Positions 21,021-56,088 of a stretch of DNA of 64,000 bases are shown here, piece after piece (within the stretch, counting starts at the first letter, position 1; each line of letters starts with the position of its first letter). The stretch is from a virus. Its lineage: Duplodnaviria > Heunggongvirae > Uroviricota > Caudoviricetes. The DNA is taken from IMG/VR virus record IMGVR_UViG_3300044824_000100, positions 1 through 64,000 of that record; one strand, written 5' to 3'. Position numbers and translations under genes: made by a program. Under the pieces are notes generated by a model, which was not told the origin of the DNA, did not search any database, and was given only the letters and a program-made list of their open reading frames with translations.

Positions 21021-21338
21021 ATGGTAACAGCCACACAAGCAGCCGTAGAGAAGCTAAAGACCCTCAGAGAAGGTGAAAAGGCATTGCGCGTATCAGTTGC
21101 GGGCGGCGGATGCTCAGGACTTAGCTATAAACTTGAGTGGGTCGAACCAGCATCGATAAGCAGCAATGATAAGCTCATGGTTGTGGACGACATCAAGATC
21201 GTCATAGACCCGAAGTCCTACATATATCTGGTTGGCATGGAATTGAACTATACGGACGGCTTAGATGGTGTCGGTTTTTCCTTTGTCAACCCTAACGCAA
21301 AGCGTGTTTGCGGATGTGGAAGTTCCTTCTCTACATAG
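21021..21338 (+). CDS. IscA/HesB-type iron-sulfur cluster insertion protein
   Basis: GGGCSG...GF.F.NPNA...CGCG.SF signature, 105 aa. Confidence 0.85.
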   Translation: MVTATQAAVEKLKTLREGEKALRVSVAGGGCSGLSYKLEWVEPASISSNDKLMVVDDIKIVIDPKSYIYLVGMELNYTDGLDGVGFSFVNPNAKRVCGCGSSFST

Positions 21339-21812
21339 ATAGTCTACTGCCTTGCGAAGCACAGTCACATCATCCTTCATTAGCCCTATACTTCTATTGC
21401 ATCTGTCACATAGCAACCCTCTAACTTGTCCAGTTTTATGGCAGTGATCGACGCACAGGCGTTTCTTTTTAGTTGGCTGAGAGTCACAAACGGCACACTT
21501 ATTCTGCTGTGCTGCCAGTAATTCGTTATAAAACTCTAATGTGATTCCATAGTAGTACTTGAGTCTACTGGATAATAACTTGTCCGGATTAGCTTTAACC
21601 CAATCCCTTGTTCTCTGTTTTTTGAGTTCTTTGTTGTTTTTGCGCCACTTTTTATGGTACTGGCTTAGTGTTTCGGCTTTAGCAACTCGTTCACTAGCCT
21701 TAAATTCGTTAATACATTGACGGCATATATGATTACGTCCATCGCCTTTTGCCTTATTGAAATTAAACTCCGCCACTAACTTTTCTTTTTTACATTTGAA
21801 GCATGTTTTCAT
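21261..21812 (-). CDS. endonuclease VII-type HNH endonuclease (homing-endonuclease-like)
   Basis: LCVDHCHKTGQVRGLLCDRCN matches T4 endo VII family; N-terminal CxxC fingers; AT-rich; 3' end overlaps iscA on opposite strand. Confidence 0.75.
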   Translation of the reverse strand: MKTCFKCKKEKLVAEFNFNKAKGDGRNHICRQCINEFKASERVAKAETLSQYHKKWRKNNKELKKQRTRDWVKANPDKLLSSRLKYYYGITLEFYNELLAAQQNKCAVCDSQPTKKKRLCVDHCHKTGQVRGLLCDRCNRSIGLMKDDVTVLRKAVDYLCREGTSTSANTLCVRVDKGKTDTI

Positions 21813-28319: not shown

Positions 28320-28572
28320 CTTTTTTCTTTCTAGATTTCTTGGGTTTTGGAAGTTGAGGAACTCCCATCACCAACTTAGTTTTTCCGTTATGTCCATGAA
28401 TACTTTCTACATCTGATATGTTTTTATAGATACATATTGAGGAATGAAAAGTTTGCCACTCCAAAACCACAGCACCAGAAGGAAAAACACAACCGCGAGC
28501 AACCAAACCAGTTCCGCTGATTCCCGTTTCGTCTTCGAGTCTAAGTAGATAAAATTCTTGAAACTTATCCAC
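28300..28572 (-). CDS. hypothetical protein
   Basis: 90 aa. Confidence 0.35.
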   Translation of the reverse strand: MDKFQEFYLLRLEDETGISGTGLVARGCVFPSGAVVLEWQTFHSSICIYKNISDVESIHGHNGKTKLVMGVPQLPKPKKSRKKKDAVSTD

Positions 28573-29107
28573 AATTTTTTCCCCTTGCCAAGTTGTCTTT
28601 TTCCCATAATGGTTGCAAGTTGCTATAATGACATACTATTTTAAGTTGTCTAATGTCTGTTAAATTAAATTTTGATAGTGGAATTATGTGGTCTATGTGC
28701 CATCCATTATTTCCATAATTTGACCAGTTCATGCCCATTAAAAACTTAGACTCTAAATGTCTCTTTAATTCATCTATTGTGCATCCTAATAATTGAATAG
28801 CAGATCCACTTTTGGAGTTGTTTTTAAGAGCCATTTTAAAACGGTTACGAATTCTATGTTTTAACTTATAACATAGGTCTTCACTTAATTTTTTACGTTT
28901 ATATTCAGCGGTTCTAGCTAGTTCATCAATGCGATTATCAATGTATTGATTGTGGCGAGCTTCTTTGCCTTTAGCAGACGATTCGTACTTAGCTTTATTT
29001 TCTTTCCATCTAGCCTTATTGTTTTTTCGCCACAAGATAGAGCGCTCAACTTTGGTCATTTTACTTCCACGGTTCTGAAGACACGTTTGTCGACTTACAT
29101 AAGTCAC
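28565..29107 (-). CDS. HNH endonuclease
   Basis: WHIDHIIPLSKF...NLQPL...N signature; very AT-rich. Confidence 0.7.
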   Translation of the reverse strand: MTYVSRQTCLQNRGSKMTKVERSILWRKNNKARWKENKAKYESSAKGKEARHNQYIDNRIDELARTAEYKRKKLSEDLCYKLKHRIRNRFKMALKNNSKSGSAIQLLGCTIDELKRHLESKFLMGMNWSNYGNNGWHIDHIIPLSKFNLTDIRQLKIVCHYSNLQPLWEKDNLARGKNCG

Positions 29108-30994: not shown

Positions 30995-31032
30995 ACAAAA
31001 GAAAAACCCCGCCAACACTTAAGTTGACGGGG
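30995..31032 (-). terminator. rho-independent terminator after lipoprotein gene
   Basis: Minus strand: GC-rich hairpin CCCCGTCAAC/GTTGGCGGGG followed by TTTTTCTTTTGT. Confidence 0.65.
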
Positions 31033-31058
31033 TCTGCGATTATATCGCTCGGAGGAGA

Positions 31059-31754
31059 TTAGTGATAGAAGTATTCAGACGGTACCGCTGCACCGTTCAT
31101 GTACAGTTGCAGAGCTTGGTTACCGTTGTACTGGTAGAAGTCGAGCTCGAACCCATATACACCCTGGTTAAGCTGATACACCTTGGATACAGTGGTTGCC
31201 CCATGTTGGCCGTCGTTGTTTAGCTGAGCGCCATTGAGCGTTAAGATGGCACCATCATCGGATGTGAGGATCATTGGATAGAATCCCGGTGACGGACTGA
31301 CGAAATACCCGTGACACTTCAGGATGAAGAAGTTCTGGAACTGGTCCCGTAAATCGTCGTTAGTACTATCAGGTAAGATACTTAATCCTGAATTAGTAGA
31401 TGAGTTGGCCACGTCAAAGTCTCCATTGTAGGTGAAAGACCCGATGGATGTGGTATCGCCACTCACGTTGATAGCACTGTTGTTGAAGGCAGCGATGGAG
31501 ACAACCGTATTCTGTCCAGCTGCATTGATACCCCAGAGTTGGCAATCCAGTCCCTGCGTGATTGGGTCCGTACCATTGAACACAAGCTGCTGGTTGTATT
31601 GAGCAACCTCAGCCGCGATCGCTGCCTGTGTGGGATTAGATGACGGTGACTGAGCAGAAGGACCAGCAGGACCTTGCAGTCCCTGTGTTCCTTGCCCACA
31701 TCCAGATAGATAGACCAAGGCGAACACTACTGTGAATAAACCAATCTTTTTCAT
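31059..31754 (-). CDS. lipoprotein with collagen-like G-x-x segment and C-terminal PA14-like carbohydrate-binding domain
   Basis: Signal peptide plus LSGC lipobox, GQGTQGLQGPAGPS, PA14 core GYFVSPSPGFYPMILTSDDGAILTLNG...GVYGFELDFYQYNG; GGAGGAAAT SD. Confidence 0.65.
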   Translation of the reverse strand: MKKIGLFTVVFALVYLSGCGQGTQGLQGPAGPSAQSPSSNPTQAAIAAEVAQYNQQLVFNGTDPITQGLDCQLWGINAAGQNTVVSIAAFNNSAINVSGDTTSIGSFTYNGDFDVANSSTNSGLSILPDSTNDDLRDQFQNFFILKCHGYFVSPSPGFYPMILTSDDGAILTLNGAQLNNDGQHGATTVSKVYQLNQGVYGFELDFYQYNGNQALQLYMNGAAVPSEYFYH

Positions 31755-31950
31755 ATTTCCTCCGATGTTGTATTACGTGAGGAATATTAGATTCGGAAGA
31801 CTAGTTATCCGGGTAGATTGTATTTTTGCCTGAACCCGTCATAAAAACGATACGTGTCGAGATGCTCCGTTGGCCTAATAGGGTTACGACATGAACCCTT
31901 TGCTTGGCCGTCCCATGCATTAGCTAAGAGAAGAAGCAAGAGTCTTAAGT

Positions 31951-32103
31951 CTAGCATACGCCCTTGTATTTGTCCTTAAATTTGTTCCAGAAACTCACGG
32001 TACGGATAGAGCTATCCTCCACGAGAGGAGATGGCCAAAGCGCCTTTGCTCTGCCATTGTGTAGTTGACTTAAGAGGTTAAGTAAGCGCTTCAAGTCTAA
32101 CAC
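31951..32103 (-). CDS. small ORF, tandem paralog 1 of 3 (50 aa, GTG start)
   Basis: Third unit of about 150-bp tandem repeat; VLDLKRLLNLLSQLHNG...FWNKFKDKYKGVC. Confidence 0.35.
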   Translation of the reverse strand: MLDLKRLLNLLSQLHNGRAKALWPSPLVEDSSIRTVSFWNKFKDKYKGVC

Positions 32104-32246
32104 AGCTTATATTTGTCCTTAAACTTAGACCAAAATCTATTAGTGTGCACCTCGCCATCTTTCGCAATGGGAGATGCCCACGACACCTTAGCACTACCAT
32201 CGTGCAAGTAGGATAGTAAACTAAGTAAACGCTTTAAGTCTAGCAT
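32097..32246 (-). CDS. small ORF, tandem paralog 2 of 3 (49 aa)
   Basis: MLDLKRLLSLLSYLHDG...FWSKFKDKYKLC; ATG overlaps upstream stop as ATGCTAG. Confidence 0.4.
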   Translation of the reverse strand: MLDLKRLLSLLSYLHDGSAKVSWASPIAKDGEVHTNRFWSKFKDKYKLC

Positions 32247-32392
32247 ACGCCGTCGTATTTATCCTTGAATTTACTCCAGAAAGACGCTGTGTTTATAAAC
32301 TCATCCTCGACGATCGGAGATGGCCATTGCGATCTCGAATGACCATCGTGCAACTTGCTCAGAAATTTAAGTAAACGTTTTAAGTCTATCAT
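32240..32392 (-). CDS. small ORF, tandem paralog 3 of 3 (50 aa)
   Basis: MIDLKRLLKFLSKLHDG...FWSKFKDKYDGVC. Confidence 0.4.
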   Translation of the reverse strand: MIDLKRLLKFLSKLHDGHSRSQWPSPIVEDEFINTASFWSKFKDKYDGVC

Positions 32393-32544
32393 TGGTTGAT
32401 GATTGCACGGATGGTATCAACAGGCGGCGCACGATCTCGCCACCGGATACTCCGACTATGAATATGTATGTTAGATATGCTACTATAATGTGCATAAGTG
32501 TAATATGTGGAACCAGATGCAGAACACCTGGTTCCACATTGATC

Positions 32545-33039
32545 TTAGCTGTTCACCATCGAGCGAAGCTCTGCTGGCAGAGCTGCGACATCGATAGGCT
32601 TAGCAGGTTTGCGGGATGCTTTGATCTCGATGACGCGAGCATCGATAAAGGTCTGGATCTCAGCCTTCTCCGATGGATCGGTCTTGGTGCCGAGAAGAGC
32701 ACGCATCGCCTTGAGTGAAGCATCGCTGGAACCGACGCGGCTTCCAGGATTCTTGGCTTCGTACTTCACTCCACCGTTAAGACGTTCGTCTTTACGGAGC
32801 CAGTTGCTCGTGAGGCCAGAGCAGTACGTGCGGAGTTCTGCTTCGGTCGTGAACGACTTGTCGAGAGTGATTGACCCACTGTTGAAGCCTTCAACGAGGA
32901 TGTTGGTCACTTGAGCACGGAGCTCACGGTTTAACTGGGAAGAATATCCTTCACCTTCGATGACGGAGATTCCAGCTTCGGATAGAACAGAAGAAACAGC
33001 GGAAAATACTGCTTCTTTCTGTGATTGTTGAGTACTCAT
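32545..33039 (-). CDS. hypothetical protein, paralog of 40693..41151
   Basis: Shares SNWLRKD.LNGGV.Y.AKNPGSR.GS.DAS..AMR.LL....DPSE..EIQ.FID.R and LPAEL with the other copy. Confidence 0.5.
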   Translation of the reverse strand: MSTQQSQKEAVFSAVSSVLSEAGISVIEGEGYSSQLNRELRAQVTNILVEGFNSGSITLDKSFTTEAELRTYCSGLTSNWLRKDERLNGGVKYEAKNPGSRVGSSDASLKAMRALLGTKTDPSEKAEIQTFIDARVIEIKASRKPAKPIDVAALPAELRSMVNS

Positions 33040-40692: not shown

Positions 40693-41151
40693 TCAGCTGC
40701 CGTACTTAGCTTGCAACTCAGCCGGAAGATCAGAGACATTGATCGTCACGGTTTTCGCAGGGCGGATCTCGCTGAGGCGCTTGTCGATGAAGGATTGGAT
40801 CTCTTCGCGCTCAGACGGATCGTTCTTGGTCTTGAGCAACTCTCTCATTGCTCGGACGGATGCATCGGTAGATCCAGCGCGACTGCCTGGGTTCTTGGCG
40901 ACATACTGAACACCACCGTTCAGTTCTTTGTCCTTGCGAAGCCAGTTGCTCTGCAACCCGCTCACGTATGCTTTCAACTCAGAGTCGGTATACTCGCGTG
41001 AGAGTTCGATCTGCTTAGACTTGAAACCTTCGAACAAGATCTGATTCACCTGAGCGCGTTCTTCCTTGGTCGGCTTGAATGCACCGTCGGTTTCACCGCA
41101 GACGTTGATCAAAGCTTGGCGAACTGCATCTTTCTGTTTCATCTTGGTCAT
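40693..41151 (-). CDS. hypothetical protein, paralog of 32545..33039
   Basis: See 32545..33039; GGAGGAACAGAGT SD. Confidence 0.5.
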   Translation of the reverse strand: MTKMKQKDAVRQALINVCGETDGAFKPTKEERAQVNQILFEGFKSKQIELSREYTDSELKAYVSGLQSNWLRKDKELNGGVQYVAKNPGSRAGSTDASVRAMRELLKTKNDPSEREEIQSFIDKRLSEIRPAKTVTINVSDLPAELQAKYGS

Positions 41152-50380: not shown

Positions 50381-53212
50381 ATGGCAATCAATGTAACATT
50401 TAACGGAGCTACAATTTATAAGCCAGGTGCTTACTCTGAGGAGATCATCGACGTAAGCGGTGGCTTCCCTGTAGGACCAACTGGCCTGGTCGCCATCTTC
50501 GGCGAAGCAGTGTCGGGTCCTCCCGGATCTAGTATCTCCGATATCTCTACGAACTCGTACTCACCAGATCAACTTCCTGCGATTCAAGCACTATATGGAA
50601 GCGGTCCTATCGTGGACGCTTGCTCGTTTCTATTCGCACCTGGCGCAGACGGCGCTATCCCAGGCGGAGCGCAAACTGTATACATCTATAAGACCAATGC
50701 ATCTACGCAGGCTTCGCTAGCAATGGGAGGCAACTTCGGTACTCTCACGGCTCAAGCTTATGGCACCAGCGGAAACTTGATCACATATCAGGACGTGGCG
50801 GTTCCAGCTCAAGCAGCTCAAACTACTTCTACTGCATCATTCGATCTAACTGGTGCTCCATTCGATGCAATCGTAAGTGGATCGCCACACCTGAACGACG
50901 CACTTGCTCAGGAAGCACAAGCAAATGCCCTCTCTGCATATACAACCTTCGAAGGTGAAACAGCAACCCCAATCTCTGCGGTTCTTGACGGACAAACTCT
51001 TACTCCTGGCGTTTACAGCACTGGCGCAGCAAGCTTAGCAGCTTCCGGCGATGGAACACTCACCTTCAACGGTGCAGGTGTTTATGTCATTCAAACTGCA
51101 AGCACCTTAGTAACTGGTTCTGGTGGCATTCCAACTATGACCCTATCTGGCGGCGCGACTGCTGCTAACATCTTCTGGGTAGTTGGTTCTTCCGCAACCA
51201 TTAACTCTGGTTTCTCTGGAATCTTCCAAGGTAACGTGATCGCTCAGGCAAGTATTACTGATACTCTTGGCGGTACAGTGAATGGTAGCTTGATCGCATT
51301 AACAGGTGCAGTGACTTTCTCTGCAGCATCGACCGTGCATGCTCAGGCATCTTCTCAGTTGGGCGCTGCTAGTAGCTTTGCGGCACTAGCTGACAGCGCA
51401 ATCACAAACACTGGCGCAAGCTTCTTCTACGGAAACGTTGGAACAAGTCCCGGAACGTCCGTGACCTTAGGCGGTGGAACAATCGTCGCAGGCGCTGGAC
51501 TAACGATGGTACTTCGTCTAAACGGTGCAGCTGCATCGCTTGACAACACCTTCACTCTTCCTAGCGGAACAGTAACTAGAGCATTACTGCAAACTGCTCT
51601 TGCAAGTTCTGGTAACTGGTCTCTAGGTCTTCCTGCTGGAATGACCTTCACCGTTTCTGGCTCTTCGGATACTGCAGCGTTCCTAAACATTGCTCAATCC
51701 AATGGATCATCTCCAGGATATGGCATAAACTTTGACTTAGTGAGTGGAGCATTCCCTGCAGCAGTACATATTGCTCTGGGCCTTTACGCTGCTGAGACTG
51801 AAGGCATGTCGGTAATCACTATCAATAACACTGGCACTCTTACTACTGAGTCTGGTACTGTTGGTGGAACGATTGTCCTTAATCTTGGAAGAACCGGTGG
51901 CGGCAGCGTAGCTCCGATGGTTACAGTGAATTCTACGAGCCTATTGTTAATCAATAACTCTGTCATCGAATACACGATCCCATTGGCTAACTTCCCATCG
52001 CTGTACTCTCTAGTTCAGTTTATCAACGGCAGCACCGCTGGCAACTGGTCTGCAGCATTGCCAAGCACGCTAGTTGGTCAACTCCCTGCAACTTCTCTAG
52101 ATGAAGTTACAAACGTTGGTGCAAACGGCGCGAACGCAGCTCAGATCAAGAATGACGCATACTCCGTAGCACAGTTCTTCGTACAGAGTTCTAACGTAAC
52201 GCTTGCCCAGGCATCTGGACAAGGTGTTGTTGGTCTTCCACCTGCACAAGGTCCAACCTATCTTGCTGGTGGCAATCTCGGTGGAACGCAATCCGCTGAT
52301 ATCGTAAACGCATTGACGGCAATCCAAGCAGTTCACGTAAACTCGGTTGTACCTCTCTTCTCGAGAGATGCATCTCAGGACATCTTGGACTTGATCACTG
52401 ATCCAAGCTCGAACTACACTATCGATGCTATCCATCAGGCTGTCAAGACATTCCTAAGTCTACAAGCTACAACTAAGGCTCGTAACGAGTGCCAAGGCTA
52501 CTTGTCATTGCACGATACGTACCTCAACTGTAAGCTTGAGTCTCAGAACATGGCTGATGCCCGCATCCAGCTTGTAATCCAAGACATGTTGCAAGTCAAC
52601 TCGCTTGGTAACCTTGTGTGGTTCTTGCCTTGGGCAGGAGCATGCTTGCTAGCAGGTGCTCGTGGCGGTTCTCCAGTAGGACTTCCAATGACCTTCAAGT
52701 ACTTCAACACCTCTGGTATTCGCCAGACGGGTCAGTTGCTATCTACTCCTGAAGCTCAGATTGTCACGGACTTCAATCCTCAGACCCAGTACGACGACGC
52801 CATCATGAATGGCATCACCTTCTGGGAGAAGCCATCGACCGGTGGTTTCCGTCTGGTTGTGGATAACACCACGTACGGTGCTGACGCAAACTGGGTATAC
52901 AACCGTGCGAACGTGCTGTATGCTGCTGACGTCCTTGCTTATGACTTCCGCAACCAACTTGAGAATATCTATGTTGGTGCTAAGAACACAGTTTCTGCTG
53001 CAGAAGTTAAGTCTACCTGCGACAGCATCTTGACAAGCTACCTAGCTCAGGGCATCACGGTCTCAACGACCGATGCTCCTAGCGGCTATAAGCAGCTCGT
53101 TGTGCAAATAGTTGGTAACACTATTAATATTAGCGTCGTAGTTAAACTGGTGGAGGGCATAGATTTCGTTCTAGCTACCATCACGTTGCAGCGCGCAACA
53201 TCAAGCGCTTAA
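50381..53212 (+). CDS. contractile tail sheath protein
   Basis: 943 aa; C-terminal region NGITFWEKPSTGGFRLVVDNTTYGADANWVYNRANVLYAADVLAYDFRNQLENIYVG resembles conserved sheath C-terminal domain; followed by tube genes; GGAGATTTGCC SD. Confidence 0.75.
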   Translation: MAINVTFNGATIYKPGAYSEEIIDVSGGFPVGPTGLVAIFGEAVSGPPGSSISDISTNSYSPDQLPAIQALYGSGPIVDACSFLFAPGADGAIPGGAQTVYIYKTNASTQASLAMGGNFGTLTAQAYGTSGNLITYQDVAVPAQAAQTTSTASFDLTGAPFDAIVSGSPHLNDALAQEAQANALSAYTTFEGETATPISAVLDGQTLTPGVYSTGAASLAASGDGTLTFNGAGVYVIQTASTLVTGSGGIPTMTLSGGATAANIFWVVGSSATINSGFSGIFQGNVIAQASITDTLGGTVNGSLIALTGAVTFSAASTVHAQASSQLGAASSFAALADSAITNTGASFFYGNVGTSPGTSVTLGGGTIVAGAGLTMVLRLNGAAASLDNTFTLPSGTVTRALLQTALASSGNWSLGLPAGMTFTVSGSSDTAAFLNIAQSNGSSPGYGINFDLVSGAFPAAVHIALGLYAAETEGMSVITINNTGTLTTESGTVGGTIVLNLGRTGGGSVAPMVTVNSTSLLLINNSVIEYTIPLANFPSLYSLVQFINGSTAGNWSAALPSTLVGQLPATSLDEVTNVGANGANAAQIKNDAYSVAQFFVQSSNVTLAQASGQGVVGLPPAQGPTYLAGGNLGGTQSADIVNALTAIQAVHVNSVVPLFSRDASQDILDLITDPSSNYTIDAIHQAVKTFLSLQATTKARNECQGYLSLHDTYLNCKLESQNMADARIQLVIQDMLQVNSLGNLVWFLPWAGACLLAGARGGSPVGLPMTFKYFNTSGIRQTGQLLSTPEAQIVTDFNPQTQYDDAIMNGITFWEKPSTGGFRLVVDNTTYGADANWVYNRANVLYAADVLAYDFRNQLENIYVGAKNTVSAAEVKSTCDSILTSYLAQGITVSTTDAPSGYKQLVVQIVGNTINISVVVKLVEGIDFVLATITLQRATSSA

Positions 53213-53862
53213 TCAATCCAACTTCTCCCCAGAAGCTTAAGACAAAGTTCTTCGGCTTCTGGGGTTTTGTTATCCGATTTAGCGAAATTTCCATCTTCAC
53301 CATGAGTCTTCATAGGTCTTAAATTAAGATAAGACTGCAACTTAATCATTTCGTCTTCTGTTTTTGCTTGATTACATGGACAGATATGATCTATGGACCA
53401 ATAAGAACCGTAGTTATCCCAAGACATGATGCCAACAAATTGTTGCTCAATCGTCATAACAAAATCTTCAAAAACACAACCTAAATATCCTTCTAGCTTC
53501 TTATGCTTCTTTAAGTTTTTACGTGTCAAATGGTTATACATTAGTGATCGCATATTAGAAAGAAGTTTAAACTTAGGATCAGAGGCCTTTCTGTCTTTTT
53601 GATATTGAGCTACATATTCGCTATGTATATCGGGGTTTTCTTCACGCCATTTATATGTAGCCTCTTTATGGCGATCTTTATTTTGCGAATTCCAGCGTTT
53701 TCTATTTTCTATTTCACGCTCTTGATTGTTCAACTTCCAAGCTTGTGTCTTTTTAAAAATACACTCAGCACACTTAGACTTACGTCCAAACTTACCGGCA
53801 GTTTCCTTGTGAAACAAATCTAACTCTTTATCATCACCGCAACCTGTACAAATTTTCTTCAT
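53209..53862 (-). CDS. HNH endonuclease inserted between sheath and tube genes
   Basis: WSIDHICPCNQA...NLRP HNH core, N-terminal CxxC; AT-rich; opposite strand within structural operon. Confidence 0.7.
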   Translation of the reverse strand: MKKICTGCGDDKELDLFHKETAGKFGRKSKCAECIFKKTQAWKLNNQEREIENRKRWNSQNKDRHKEATYKWREENPDIHSEYVAQYQKDRKASDPKFKLLSNMRSLMYNHLTRKNLKKHKKLEGYLGCVFEDFVMTIEQQFVGIMSWDNYGSYWSIDHICPCNQAKTEDEMIKLQSYLNLRPMKTHGEDGNFAKSDNKTPEAEELCLKLLGRSWID

Positions 53863-54778: not shown

Positions 54779-55354
54779 ATGGCAGGAAAAGTTCCTAGCT
54801 TCGTTACTGGGGCCAACGCAAAAATAACTGCAGGTGGGGTTACTTTCGCTTATGCAGCGGATGTAAGTTACAACGTATCAATCGACACAGTGCCAATCGA
54901 AACAATGGGTCGTTATGAAACAGTCTCTAACGAACCAGTTAACTACTCTGTAAGTGGTGAACTTAGCGTAGTTCGCTATACTGGTATCGCTAACAATAAT
55001 AACATGGCAGGCGCTGCTGTTAACGGCAACGGCTTGGGTAACGTAAATTATAAGACTGGTGGCAACGGTGCTGACCAGATCAATCCAGGAAACATGCTGA
55101 TCTCTGAGACATGGGATTTGAACGTCTATCAAAAGATCGCTTCAGGTAACCCAGCTACTACGTCTCCAGCAGAAACTAACACAGGTGCTCCTTCAAGCGG
55201 CGCAGTGATCACGATCACAGATTGTCGCTTTAACCGTAAGGCTGCTGGCATCAATAAGCGTGGAATTTTGGTTGACAGATTAAGTTTTGTCGGCATCCTA
55301 GCTTACGACGACAGCTTCCAAGCTGGTACCTCAGGAGACATCGACCTCAGCTAA
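54779..55354 (+). CDS. tail tube protein (paralog 1, probably major)
   Basis: 191 aa immediately after sheath; followed by strong terminator; paralogous to next two ORFs. Confidence 0.6.
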   Translation: MAGKVPSFVTGANAKITAGGVTFAYAADVSYNVSIDTVPIETMGRYETVSNEPVNYSVSGELSVVRYTGIANNNNMAGAAVNGNGLGNVNYKTGGNGADQINPGNMLISETWDLNVYQKIASGNPATTSPAETNTGAPSSGAVITITDCRFNRKAAGINKRGILVDRLSFVGILAYDDSFQAGTSGDIDLS

Positions 55355-55449: not shown

Positions 55450-56088
55450 ATGGCAGGCGTAAAACCTTTCTTCCTCACAGGCGACAAACTTAAGTTGGTT
55501 CTCAACGGTAAGACCATAGCGTTCGCTACCGACCTATCCTGCTCTATACAGGTCTCTCATCAGACCCCACACGTCCTAGGCATGTATGAAGGGGTTTCTG
55601 TTGAGCCATTAGCTTATAACGTTTCTGGTAGTTTTAGCATTATTAGATATGTCCATAACGCTATCGCTAACATAGGTGGAACTCCGCCTAATGGAGTTAG
55701 TCCATCTGATGCAGGTAACGGCGTGGGTAATTGGGGCTCTGTCTGGGGCGGCGGTGTTCTAAACAATGTTCTGTCTACAATAGGTAATCCGTTCAGTGGG
55801 GGCACTGATGGACGAGCTAATGAGGCCCTTGATCCTAGCACCTATCAAACAGGAACCACGTTTGACATCCTAGTTTATCAACAAGTCGCTAATAATGCGG
55901 CTGATACAGGTTCTACAACCACCGACGTATTAGGCGTAATTAGGATCAGAAGCGCCAGAATAACTAGAGCAGATTTCAGCGTTAACAAGAAAAGCCCAGC
56001 TCAGGATAGATTTGAGTTCACTGCACTCTATGTCGATGGAGATGCCTATCAGGCAAACCCATCTGGTACGGGTCAGCAGAACTCTTAA
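55450..56088 (+). CDS. tail tube protein paralog 2
   Basis: N-terminus MAGVKPFFLTGDKLKLVLNGKTIAFATDLSCS aligns with paralog 1 MAGKVPSFVTGANAKITAGGVTFAYAADVSYN. Confidence 0.55.
   Translation: MAGVKPFFLTGDKLKLVLNGKTIAFATDLSCSIQVSHQTPHVLGMYEGVSVEPLAYNVSGSFSIIRYVHNAIANIGGTPPNGVSPSDAGNGVGNWGSVWGGGVLNNVLSTIGNPFSGGTDGRANEALDPSTYQTGTTFDILVYQQVANNAADTGSTTTDVLGVIRIRSARITRADFSVNKKSPAQDRFEFTALYVDGDAYQANPSGTGQQNS

Follow-up and report, generated by a model that had tools for sequence, protein, structure and literature searches.

The 64,000-nt stretch analyzed here (positions 1 to 64,000 of the IMG/VR virus record IMGVR_UViG_3300044824_000100, a member of the Caudoviricetes; this whole stretch is hereafter called the window) carries on its minus strand four full-length copies of a mini-gene, arranged head to tail and designated c1 to c4. 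The array is a quadruplication, and its copies can be assigned by their sequences to a previously undescribed and very rare family of phage proteins of about 50 amino acids (aa). Arrays of diverged copies are the normal state of this family and a recurrent property of it. Orphan small genes and paralog expansions are already familiar from phage accessory regions; the distinctive feature is a concatenation-ready junction, which lies within the conserved N-terminus of the gene itself and recurs across arrays.

Layout and divergence of the array

A preliminary description of this DNA, made by a model from the letters and a list of open reading frames (ORFs), had reported a tandem triplication, followed by a truncated fourth copy, which it took as a possible recent amplification of a small gene. 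The three minus-strand ORFs that it named, c1 to c3, lie exactly where it had placed them (50, 49 and 50 aa; Table 1) and fit the consensus it had drawn from them. The fourth copy, described as ending in a stop after a few residues, is in fact a full 50-aa ORF, in which TTA-GCT (Leu-Ala) had been misread as a stop. The c4 translation runs MLDLRLLLLLLANAWDG...QKYNLPG and ends in TAA, 50 nt ahead of the start codon of the next gene, which encodes a PA14-domain lipoprotein. Across the units the repeat period is ~146-150 bp. At every junction in the window the start of one copy and the stop of the preceding one overlap by 7 nt. The sequence ATGCTAG, described earlier for the start/stop overlaps, was seen at c1/c2 and c3/c4, and the variant GTGTTAG at c2/c3, with c3 starting at GTG; the upstream stop sits within codons 2-3 of the next copy. 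The start of c1 is placed 26 nt inside an upstream ORF for a 42-aa membrane protein.

The four copies proved to be strongly diverged. Pairwise DNA identity was 63-69% among c1-c3 and 44-51% in comparisons with c4 (the units differ at 31-56% of bases), and the corresponding protein identities were 59-64% and 33-45%. BLASTP between copies gave E = 1e-17 for c1 vs c3 and E = 1e-7 for c4 vs c1. Tandem Repeats Finder did not score the array as a repeat, as might be expected of units so diverged, and this result, together with the strong differences in DNA, excludes a recent amplification or an assembly artefact. The differences between copies were most frequent at codon position 3, followed by position 1 and then position 2. 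By the Nei-Gojobori method, the proportion of synonymous differences (pS) was saturated at 0.67-0.91, and that of nonsynonymous differences (pN) was 0.21-0.31 among c1-c3 and 0.41-0.48 against c4, with a pN/pS of 0.28-0.70 between copies. With the same number of mismatches placed at random, none of 2000 trials attained the observed amino-acid identity for five of the six pairs, and 13 of 2000 did so for c3-c4. Divided by region, pN/pS was 0.12-0.67 in the predicted helices (the anomalous N-terminal stretch of c1-c2 being left out) and 0.56-0.91 in the middle. The duplication is old, and the copies are anciently diverged paralogs under purifying selection on the amino-acid sequence. Thus the conserved reading frame that the preliminary description had assumed is present, all four frames being open with a start and a stop and showing a coding-type substitution pattern. 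The recent date that it had proposed was contradicted by the saturated pS, by the low protein identity of c4 and by the equally diverged arrays found in other phages.

One stretch within the array stands apart. Between the first 48 coding nt of c1 (32345-32392) and those of c2 (32199-32246), pS was only 0.19, as compared with ~0.9 in other pairs and regions, on very few sites; this stretch may be a short gene-conversion or recombination tract.

A periodicity of ~146-150 bp upstream of a gene could in itself point away from a protein feature, to recent DNA amplification, an assembly artefact, the target of a retroelement, or regulatory upstream ORFs for the lipoprotein gene. The tests run have already refuted this explanation, to which we give next to no credence: besides the DNA identity of 44-69%, the Tandem Repeats Finder result and the selection on amino-acid sequence, homologs also occur downstream of, or away from, lipoprotein genes. 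A diversity-generating retroelement was rejected, as the mismatches were spread over all four bases, with an A-fraction of 0.21-0.33 in every direction and no adenine bias; there was also no reverse transcriptase match among the ORFs scanned in and beside the unit, where no dedicated search was made. An RNA element was rejected on the basis of Rfam, which gave no match. A programmed frameshift fusing the copies was likewise rejected, as no slippery heptamer was seen by eye and, ahead of each start, the downstream frame stays open over a mere 1-8 codons.

Homologs, chained junctions and predicted fold

An exhaustive hidden Markov model (HMM) search of 1.84 billion representative proteins returned 17 matches. 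Twelve are small homologs of 49-69 aa, all metagenomic, which aligned end to end with E values from 2e-13 to 7e-4. The other five are large proteins in which only short parts of the profile matched, and these were taken as spurious; three of them were checked, of which P0005 proved to be an MBG-domain repeat protein, and P0010 and P0014 matched nothing in Pfam. None of the copies matched Pfam, PHROGs, NCBIfam or PADLOC at E <= 0.05. A word-indexed protein search with the four window copies alone found nothing. With a 20-sequence alignment as query it re-found only already known proteins, seven homologs, each in a cluster with one member on one or two contigs, the two named ones being labelled 'hypothetical protein'. 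Neither tblastn of two family members against 50,697 GenBank phages nor megablast of the region against GenBank phages gave a match, and family pattern scans of viral contigs, metagenome contigs and GTDB genomes yielded none that was confirmed.

The family consensus is M-[IL]-[DN]-[IL]-[KR]-x-L-L-x-L-L-x-x-L-x-D-G ... P ... [IL]-x-T-x-x-F-W-x-x-F-x-D-K-Y-x-L, with M1, L7, L8, L11, P26 and T35 invariant. The Cys at the C-terminus of c1-c3 is missing from the rest of the family. In a neighbor-joining tree (~50 residues, without support values), c1-c3 grouped together and c4 grouped with the first copy of the array on contig L009, and there was no clear one-to-one orthology between the positions of different arrays. 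A wider 'LLxxLxKLG[IV]' superfamily among neighboring small ORFs was also considered and rejected, as the strict motif occurred twice vs 0.86 expected and no pairwise homology was seen. A second small family, of 71-74 aa, was observed in L010 (310-534) and L065 (5926-6141), with 36% identity at E = 3e-6. It has a similar N-terminal helix, (L)LxILSxL, and in L010 it directly follows the mini-protein family member; kinship of the two families is unproven, with an hhalign probability of only 29%.

Copy numbers elsewhere were determined by scanning the homolog-encoding contigs in six frames with the family HMM. At least five copies are present on the 1,980-bp contig L009, at least four on L012/L013, where the array is cut by the contig end, and at least three on L016, where it is cut at both ends. 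Joined through their 183-nt overlap, the contigs L014 and L011 hold an array of five copies, which comes after the gene for a 187-aa collagen-repeat lipoprotein. The samples that contain these arrays are ERZ16303040 (L009), ERZ1756482 (L012), ERZ28655295 (L016), and ERZ28653482 and JGI 3300036876 (L014/L011). Single copies were found on L010 and on the 57.6-kb syntenic contig L008, in which the copy follows a PA14 gene. The preliminary description had proposed such a comparison of copy number among relatives; its outcome was a range from one (L008) to at least five, most relatives anchored on the conserved neighboring gene having none.

We also examined the internal junctions of the L009, L011, L012, L014 and L016 arrays, all of which overlap, either by 4 nt (ATGA) or by 8 nt (ATGATTGA, ATGCTTGA, ATGATTAA and ATGCTTAA). 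The codons of the N-terminal M-[IL]-[DN] tripeptide (ATG CTA GA, ATG ATT GA) also hold the out-of-frame stop of the preceding gene, and because they do so, copies are chained by overlaps of 4, 7 or 8 nt. Codon choice in the N-terminal motif varies freely among loci, indicating that the constraint is on the protein and not on the DNA; a DNA-level motif at the 5' ends is ruled out by the same variation. According to a recent review, overlaps of -4 and -8 nt are the spacings enriched for termination-reinitiation coupling, and gene pairs of this kind often encode the subunits of complexes (PMC12548453). The -7 nt overlap of the window has the same frame relation as that of -4. The overlaps probably favor translation by termination-reinitiation, by which the four paralogs would be co-translated.

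To model the protein, AlphaFold2 was run with a 16-sequence family alignment. The c1 model has a helix at 4-14, strands at 22-24 and 32-34 and a second helix at 36-46, with a predicted local distance difference test score (pLDDT) of 73; the c4 model has the same topology despite its divergence (pLDDT 78.8). In the predicted fold, the N-terminal helix is amphipathic and the C-terminal one aromatic, with a variable beta-hairpin or loop between them; the fold had no structural relative in the libraries searched. The conserved residues are M1, L4, L7, L8, L11, L14, G17, P26, T35, F38, W39, F42, Y46 and L48, among which L4, L7, L8, L11 and L14 make up the hydrophobic face of helix 1, and F38, W39, F42 and Y46 the aromatic face of helix 2. 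Both helix faces show low column entropy, and residues 18-32, except P26, show high entropy; conservation within the family is greatest over the N-terminal 17 residues. The isoelectric points (pI) of its members span 4.1 to 10.4. A simple rule-based check, as opposed to a trained predictor, found no signal peptide, lipobox or membrane segment in family members, in which the highest 19-residue Kyte-Doolittle mean was 1.16 and the longest hydrophobic run was 2-7 residues depending on the member. We infer that the products are soluble cytoplasmic proteins, with a common scaffold and a variable loop and surface. The earlier suggestion of a leader-like gene did not hold up, as distant homologs conserve the whole 50 aa, which are predicted to form a folded domain, and the family lies downstream of the lipoprotein gene in relatives.

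Transcription unit, variable slot and phage lineage

As read from the DNA, the array is part of a single, operon-like minus-strand transcription unit, comprising the hairpin, the 42-aa ORF, c1-c4, the PA14 lipoprotein gene and the terminator (Table 1). We regard the genetic description of this unit as very likely to be correct.

Table 1. Positions in the window of the four copies and of the features that flank them
Feature	Position	Strand	Description
Conserved 164-aa gene	32545-33039	-	Upstream anchor of the variable slot; context, not a member of the array
Hairpin, 16 bp	32505-32539	-	Between the stop of the 164-aa gene and the membrane ORF; -28.5 kcal/mol, z = -5.6, 0/200 shuffles as good
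42-aa ORF	32367-32495	-	First gene of the unit; one hydrophobic segment; MHIIVAYLTYIFIVGVSGGEIVRRLL...
c1	32240-32392	-	ATG start, 50 aa, MIDLKRLLKFLSKLHDGHSRSQWPSPIVEDEFINTASFWSKFKDKYDGVC; in the ORF list; family HMM E = 2e-24
c2	32097-32246	-	ATG start, 49 aa; in the ORF list; family HMM E = 9e-24
c3	31951-32103	-	GTG start, 50 aa; in the ORF list; family HMM E = 1.4e-22
c4	31805-31957	-	ATG start, 50 aa, full length, MLDLRLLLLLLANAWDGQAKGSCRNPIRPTEHLDTYRFYDGFRQKYNLPG; most divergent copy; family HMM E = 3e-20
PA14-domain lipoprotein gene	31059-31754	-	Last gene of the unit, 231 aa; Pfam PA14 E = 2.5e-8, 34.3 bits vs cut-off 24
Intrinsic terminator	31004-31035	-	13-bp stem with 7 G-C pairs, then a T run; closes the unit

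The hairpin probably marks the 5' edge of the unit, either as a terminator, whose U-tract would be weak, or as a processing site, and L001, L002 and L008 have inverted repeats of unrelated sequence at its position (read from the alignment, unfolded). The 42-aa ORF is probably a real small membrane protein, because a counterpart, which shares the motif GE[IL]VxR, directly follows the 164-aa gene in six loci (L001, L002, L008, L026, L028 and L040); the ORF had no match in PADLOC or NCBIfam. At the other end of the unit, the PA14 lipoprotein has the lipobox LSGC and a short collagen-like linker, and a GGAGG ribosome-binding site lies in the 50-nt spacer before its gene. It is 52% identical to the PA14 lipoprotein of L008 and 38% identical to that of L001; its use as an anchor in viral contigs found nothing. 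With respect to these neighbors the preliminary description was borne out. It had placed a PA14 lipoprotein gene beside the array and a terminator at its close, both of which are there, and the co-transcription that it proposed agrees with the lack of any terminator-like or promoter-like site between the array and the lipoprotein gene and with the single terminator after the latter. In two further contexts, L008 and L014/L015, the family again adjoins a phage lipoprotein gene.

We used the 164-aa gene to gather 113 loci; its orthologs are 75-85% identical in related contigs. The mini-protein family was absent from the other 120 loci scanned (113 anchored on the 164-aa gene; ~0.7 Mb in total), and among anchored or syntenic loci it was found only in the window, with four copies before the PA14 gene, and in L008, with one copy after it. 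Because it is limited to these two among the anchored loci scanned, the family is a sporadic accessory of the variable slot. The cargo of the slot behind the membrane ORF differs between relatives: PA14 or collagen-linker lipoproteins are found in L001, L008, L020, L022, L028, L029, L030 and L040, HExxH lipoproteins without family members in L001 and L002, and other lipoproteins elsewhere.

Several further observations concern the slot and its anchor. The slot after the anchor gene is a hotspot of phage lipoprotein genes (L001 8593-9787, L002 8685-9867, L020, L022, L025, L028, L029, L030 and L040), which encode, among others, PA14 lipoproteins whose linkers are of the collagen-like Gly-X-Y type and small lipoproteins with HExxH (metalloprotease-like), in phage-specific combinations. 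A paralog of the 164-aa gene, 51% identical, lies 8 kb away at 40693-41151 (-), and related 150-177-kb contigs also have two copies (L001/L003 and L043/L044); neither the gene nor its paralog had a significant match in Pfam or PHROGs. In more distant relatives, two or three tandem ORFs of ~60 aa follow the anchor gene (L121 5572-6115 and L123 5582-6437), and by eye only these look like paralogs from another small family (...RKFLLTLHLLSVERKNFWSK...). Carrying paralogs of small genes in tandem may be habitual in this phage group.

The window encodes a tail sheath, a ribonucleotide reductase, a nicotinamide phosphoribosyltransferase, a DNA ligase and one tRNA-Met. We assign it on present evidence to a large myovirus-like genome of a ~175-kb group that is distantly related to Myxococcus phage Mx1, the nearest cultured phage found, with 30% identity over half of the tail sheath; related uncultured contigs span 150-177 kb. 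Host assignment via genomes matched only mis-binned contigs of metagenome-assembled genomes. The head and tail genes are located at 46-64 kb, and the array lies far off, in a block of small genes. The tail sheath (50381-53212, +) is unusually long at 943 aa, and only its C-terminal half matches known sheaths. Also in the structural module, the adjacent paralogs at 54779-55354 (+) and 55450-56088 (+) share 29% identity over 212 aa (E = 6e-20), as if a virion or tail gene had been duplicated in tandem. Three paralogous ORFs at 28565-29107 (-), 21261-21812 (-) and 53209-53862 (-) are 28-29% identical, the first with an HNH-like motif, HIDHIIPLSKF...N, recognized by eye; these may be homing-endonuclease-type genes scattered through the genome.

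Possible roles and comparison with known systems

The explanation that we favor, while placing it somewhat short of probable, is that the array encodes small soluble binders, co-translated as a panel and used in host takeover or counter-defence. It is suggested by the small size of the proteins, their orphan status, the variable slot, the plasticity of copy number and the diversification of the surface. On this explanation the four proteins would be made together in the cytoplasm, from a block assumed to be non-structural or early. They would have one scaffold in common and differ from copy to copy in loop and surface chemistry, so that each could neutralize or redirect a different variant of a host target. 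The array would grow and shrink by unequal crossing-over between its conserved ends. A preprint on phage diversity hotspots describes their accessory genes as often being engaged in defence or counter-defence (bioRxiv 10.1101/2024.10.15.618418).

The function proposed for the mini-proteins, taken separately, is tentative and rather doubtful, and the following points weigh against it. The role is based only on size, variability, copy-number plasticity and location; the repeated adjacency to lipoprotein genes could instead mean a functional link to the envelope; and pN/pS in the middle region is below 1, so positive selection is not demonstrated, in a test that the saturated synonymous sites weaken. 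We consider it unlikely that the proposal holds in its most complete form: a self-concatenating mini-gene, whose first three codons combine its own start with the stop of the upstream copy, so that unequal crossing-over would always regenerate a working chained junction, and by which phages vary panels of variable-loop binders on a 50-aa scaffold of unseen fold, as a repertoire-like means of counter-defence or host targeting in which paralogs recognize different variants of a target.

Among the alternatives, there is a minor but real chance that the mini-proteins belong to an envelope module, acting with the membrane ORF and the lipoprotein, which refines the idea of the preliminary description. 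In a cassette for superinfection exclusion or surface modification they might be partners in the cytoplasm, regulators or immunity-like factors. The mini-proteins share one transcription unit with the membrane ORF and the lipoprotein, c1 and the end of the membrane ORF overlap by 26 nt, and a lipoprotein gene adjoins the family, before or after it, in three contexts (the window, L008, and L014/L015 with L011). However, most relatives have the membrane ORF and lipoproteins without a family member, indicating that the lipoproteins do not need the mini-proteins, and the adjacency may merely reflect a shared accessory slot. Furthermore, the mini-proteins lack a signal peptide, lipobox or membrane segment, and the readable ORFs upstream of the L009 and L012 arrays (short contigs) are not lipoproteins. 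The stop/start overlaps at all junctions of all arrays would also suit paralogs that serve as subunits of one hetero-oligomer in fixed proportions, for which the amphipathic helices with their conserved hydrophobic faces could bundle. Such an assembly is unlikely, given that a range from one copy (L008) to at least five does not suit a fixed stoichiometry, that array positions lack clear one-to-one orthology, and that the conserved hydrophobic faces are already buried in the monomer model.

The remaining two alternatives assign a special role to the N-terminus. As its 17 residues are the most conserved of the family, the N-terminal helix might be a capsid-targeting signal, and the products T4-like packaged internal proteins that are injected with the DNA against host defences. 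We regard this as very unlikely, as no conserved Glu or protease-site-like motif follows the helix and the array, being part of the small-gene block, is distant from the head and tail genes (46-64 kb). Moreover, conservation extends to the C-terminal helix, which in the models is packed against that of the N-terminus, and for this reason the N-terminus looks structural and not like a removable tag. A tandem set of small ORFs with a conserved amphipathic N-terminus ending in D/N-G, then a variable stretch and, in c1-c3, a final Cys, is also reminiscent of precursors of exported peptides (bacteriocins, ribosomally synthesized and post-translationally modified peptides, or signaling peptides) with a conserved leader and a variable core. 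The chance of this is slighter still. There is no double-glycine motif (positions 16-17 are D/N-G, with D or N at position -2) and no Sec signal, the last 15 residues are conserved and, in the prediction, fold together with the N-terminus, and the C-terminal Cys is absent from other family members. The unit also lacks a processing protease, a transporter and a modification enzyme, the neighbors being only the membrane ORF and the lipoprotein.

Taken together, the analysis adds a new and very rare phage mini-protein family, without annotation or structural relatives and with a recurring array architecture. If the copies do form a diversified panel of binders, the 50-aa scaffold would be a tractable model for the evolution of multi-specific counter-defence, and it could possibly be useful as a small engineerable binding domain.

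Several known systems resemble the array in part. Polymorphic toxin systems contain head-to-tail arrays of diverged small immunity paralogs by the gene for a secreted or surface protein, and the array is similar to these in having diverged small paralogs in tandem next to a surface protein gene. However, polymorphic-toxin immunity proteins are usually larger, the neighboring lipoproteins show only PA14 and collagen-like repeats with no toxin domain recognized, and the array lies in a phage genome of lytic type. In phage hotspots, anti-defence genes such as anti-CRISPRs are likewise very small, orphan and sporadic among close relatives, and sit in variable slots flanked by conserved genes. The anti-defence loci known so far are usually made up of unrelated genes and not of three to five or more paralogs, whereas the array holds paralogs only, and a regulator gene associated with it was not seen.

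The T-even ip loci are also alike in consisting of small side-by-side phage proteins that are highly diversified between phages and have a conserved N-terminal segment. Their products, the internal proteins IPI, IPII, IPIII and variants, have a documented role in countering host restriction (PMC3012670). In the T4 internal proteins the common part is a cleavable targeting sequence of ~10 aa, and they are otherwise unrelated, whereas here the whole 50-aa domain is homologous. The array family also has no protease-site motif and no sequence or fold similarity to them. Finally, coupled operons with overlapping codons (NTGA, NTGNNTGA) find their match in the -4 and -8 nt overlaps of the related arrays, although the -7 nt overlap of the window is not among their commonly enriched spacings. 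Unlike in the usual coupled operons, it is the conserved N-terminal tripeptide of a repeated gene that supplies the overlap, and every unit therefore carries the stop of the unit that precedes it.

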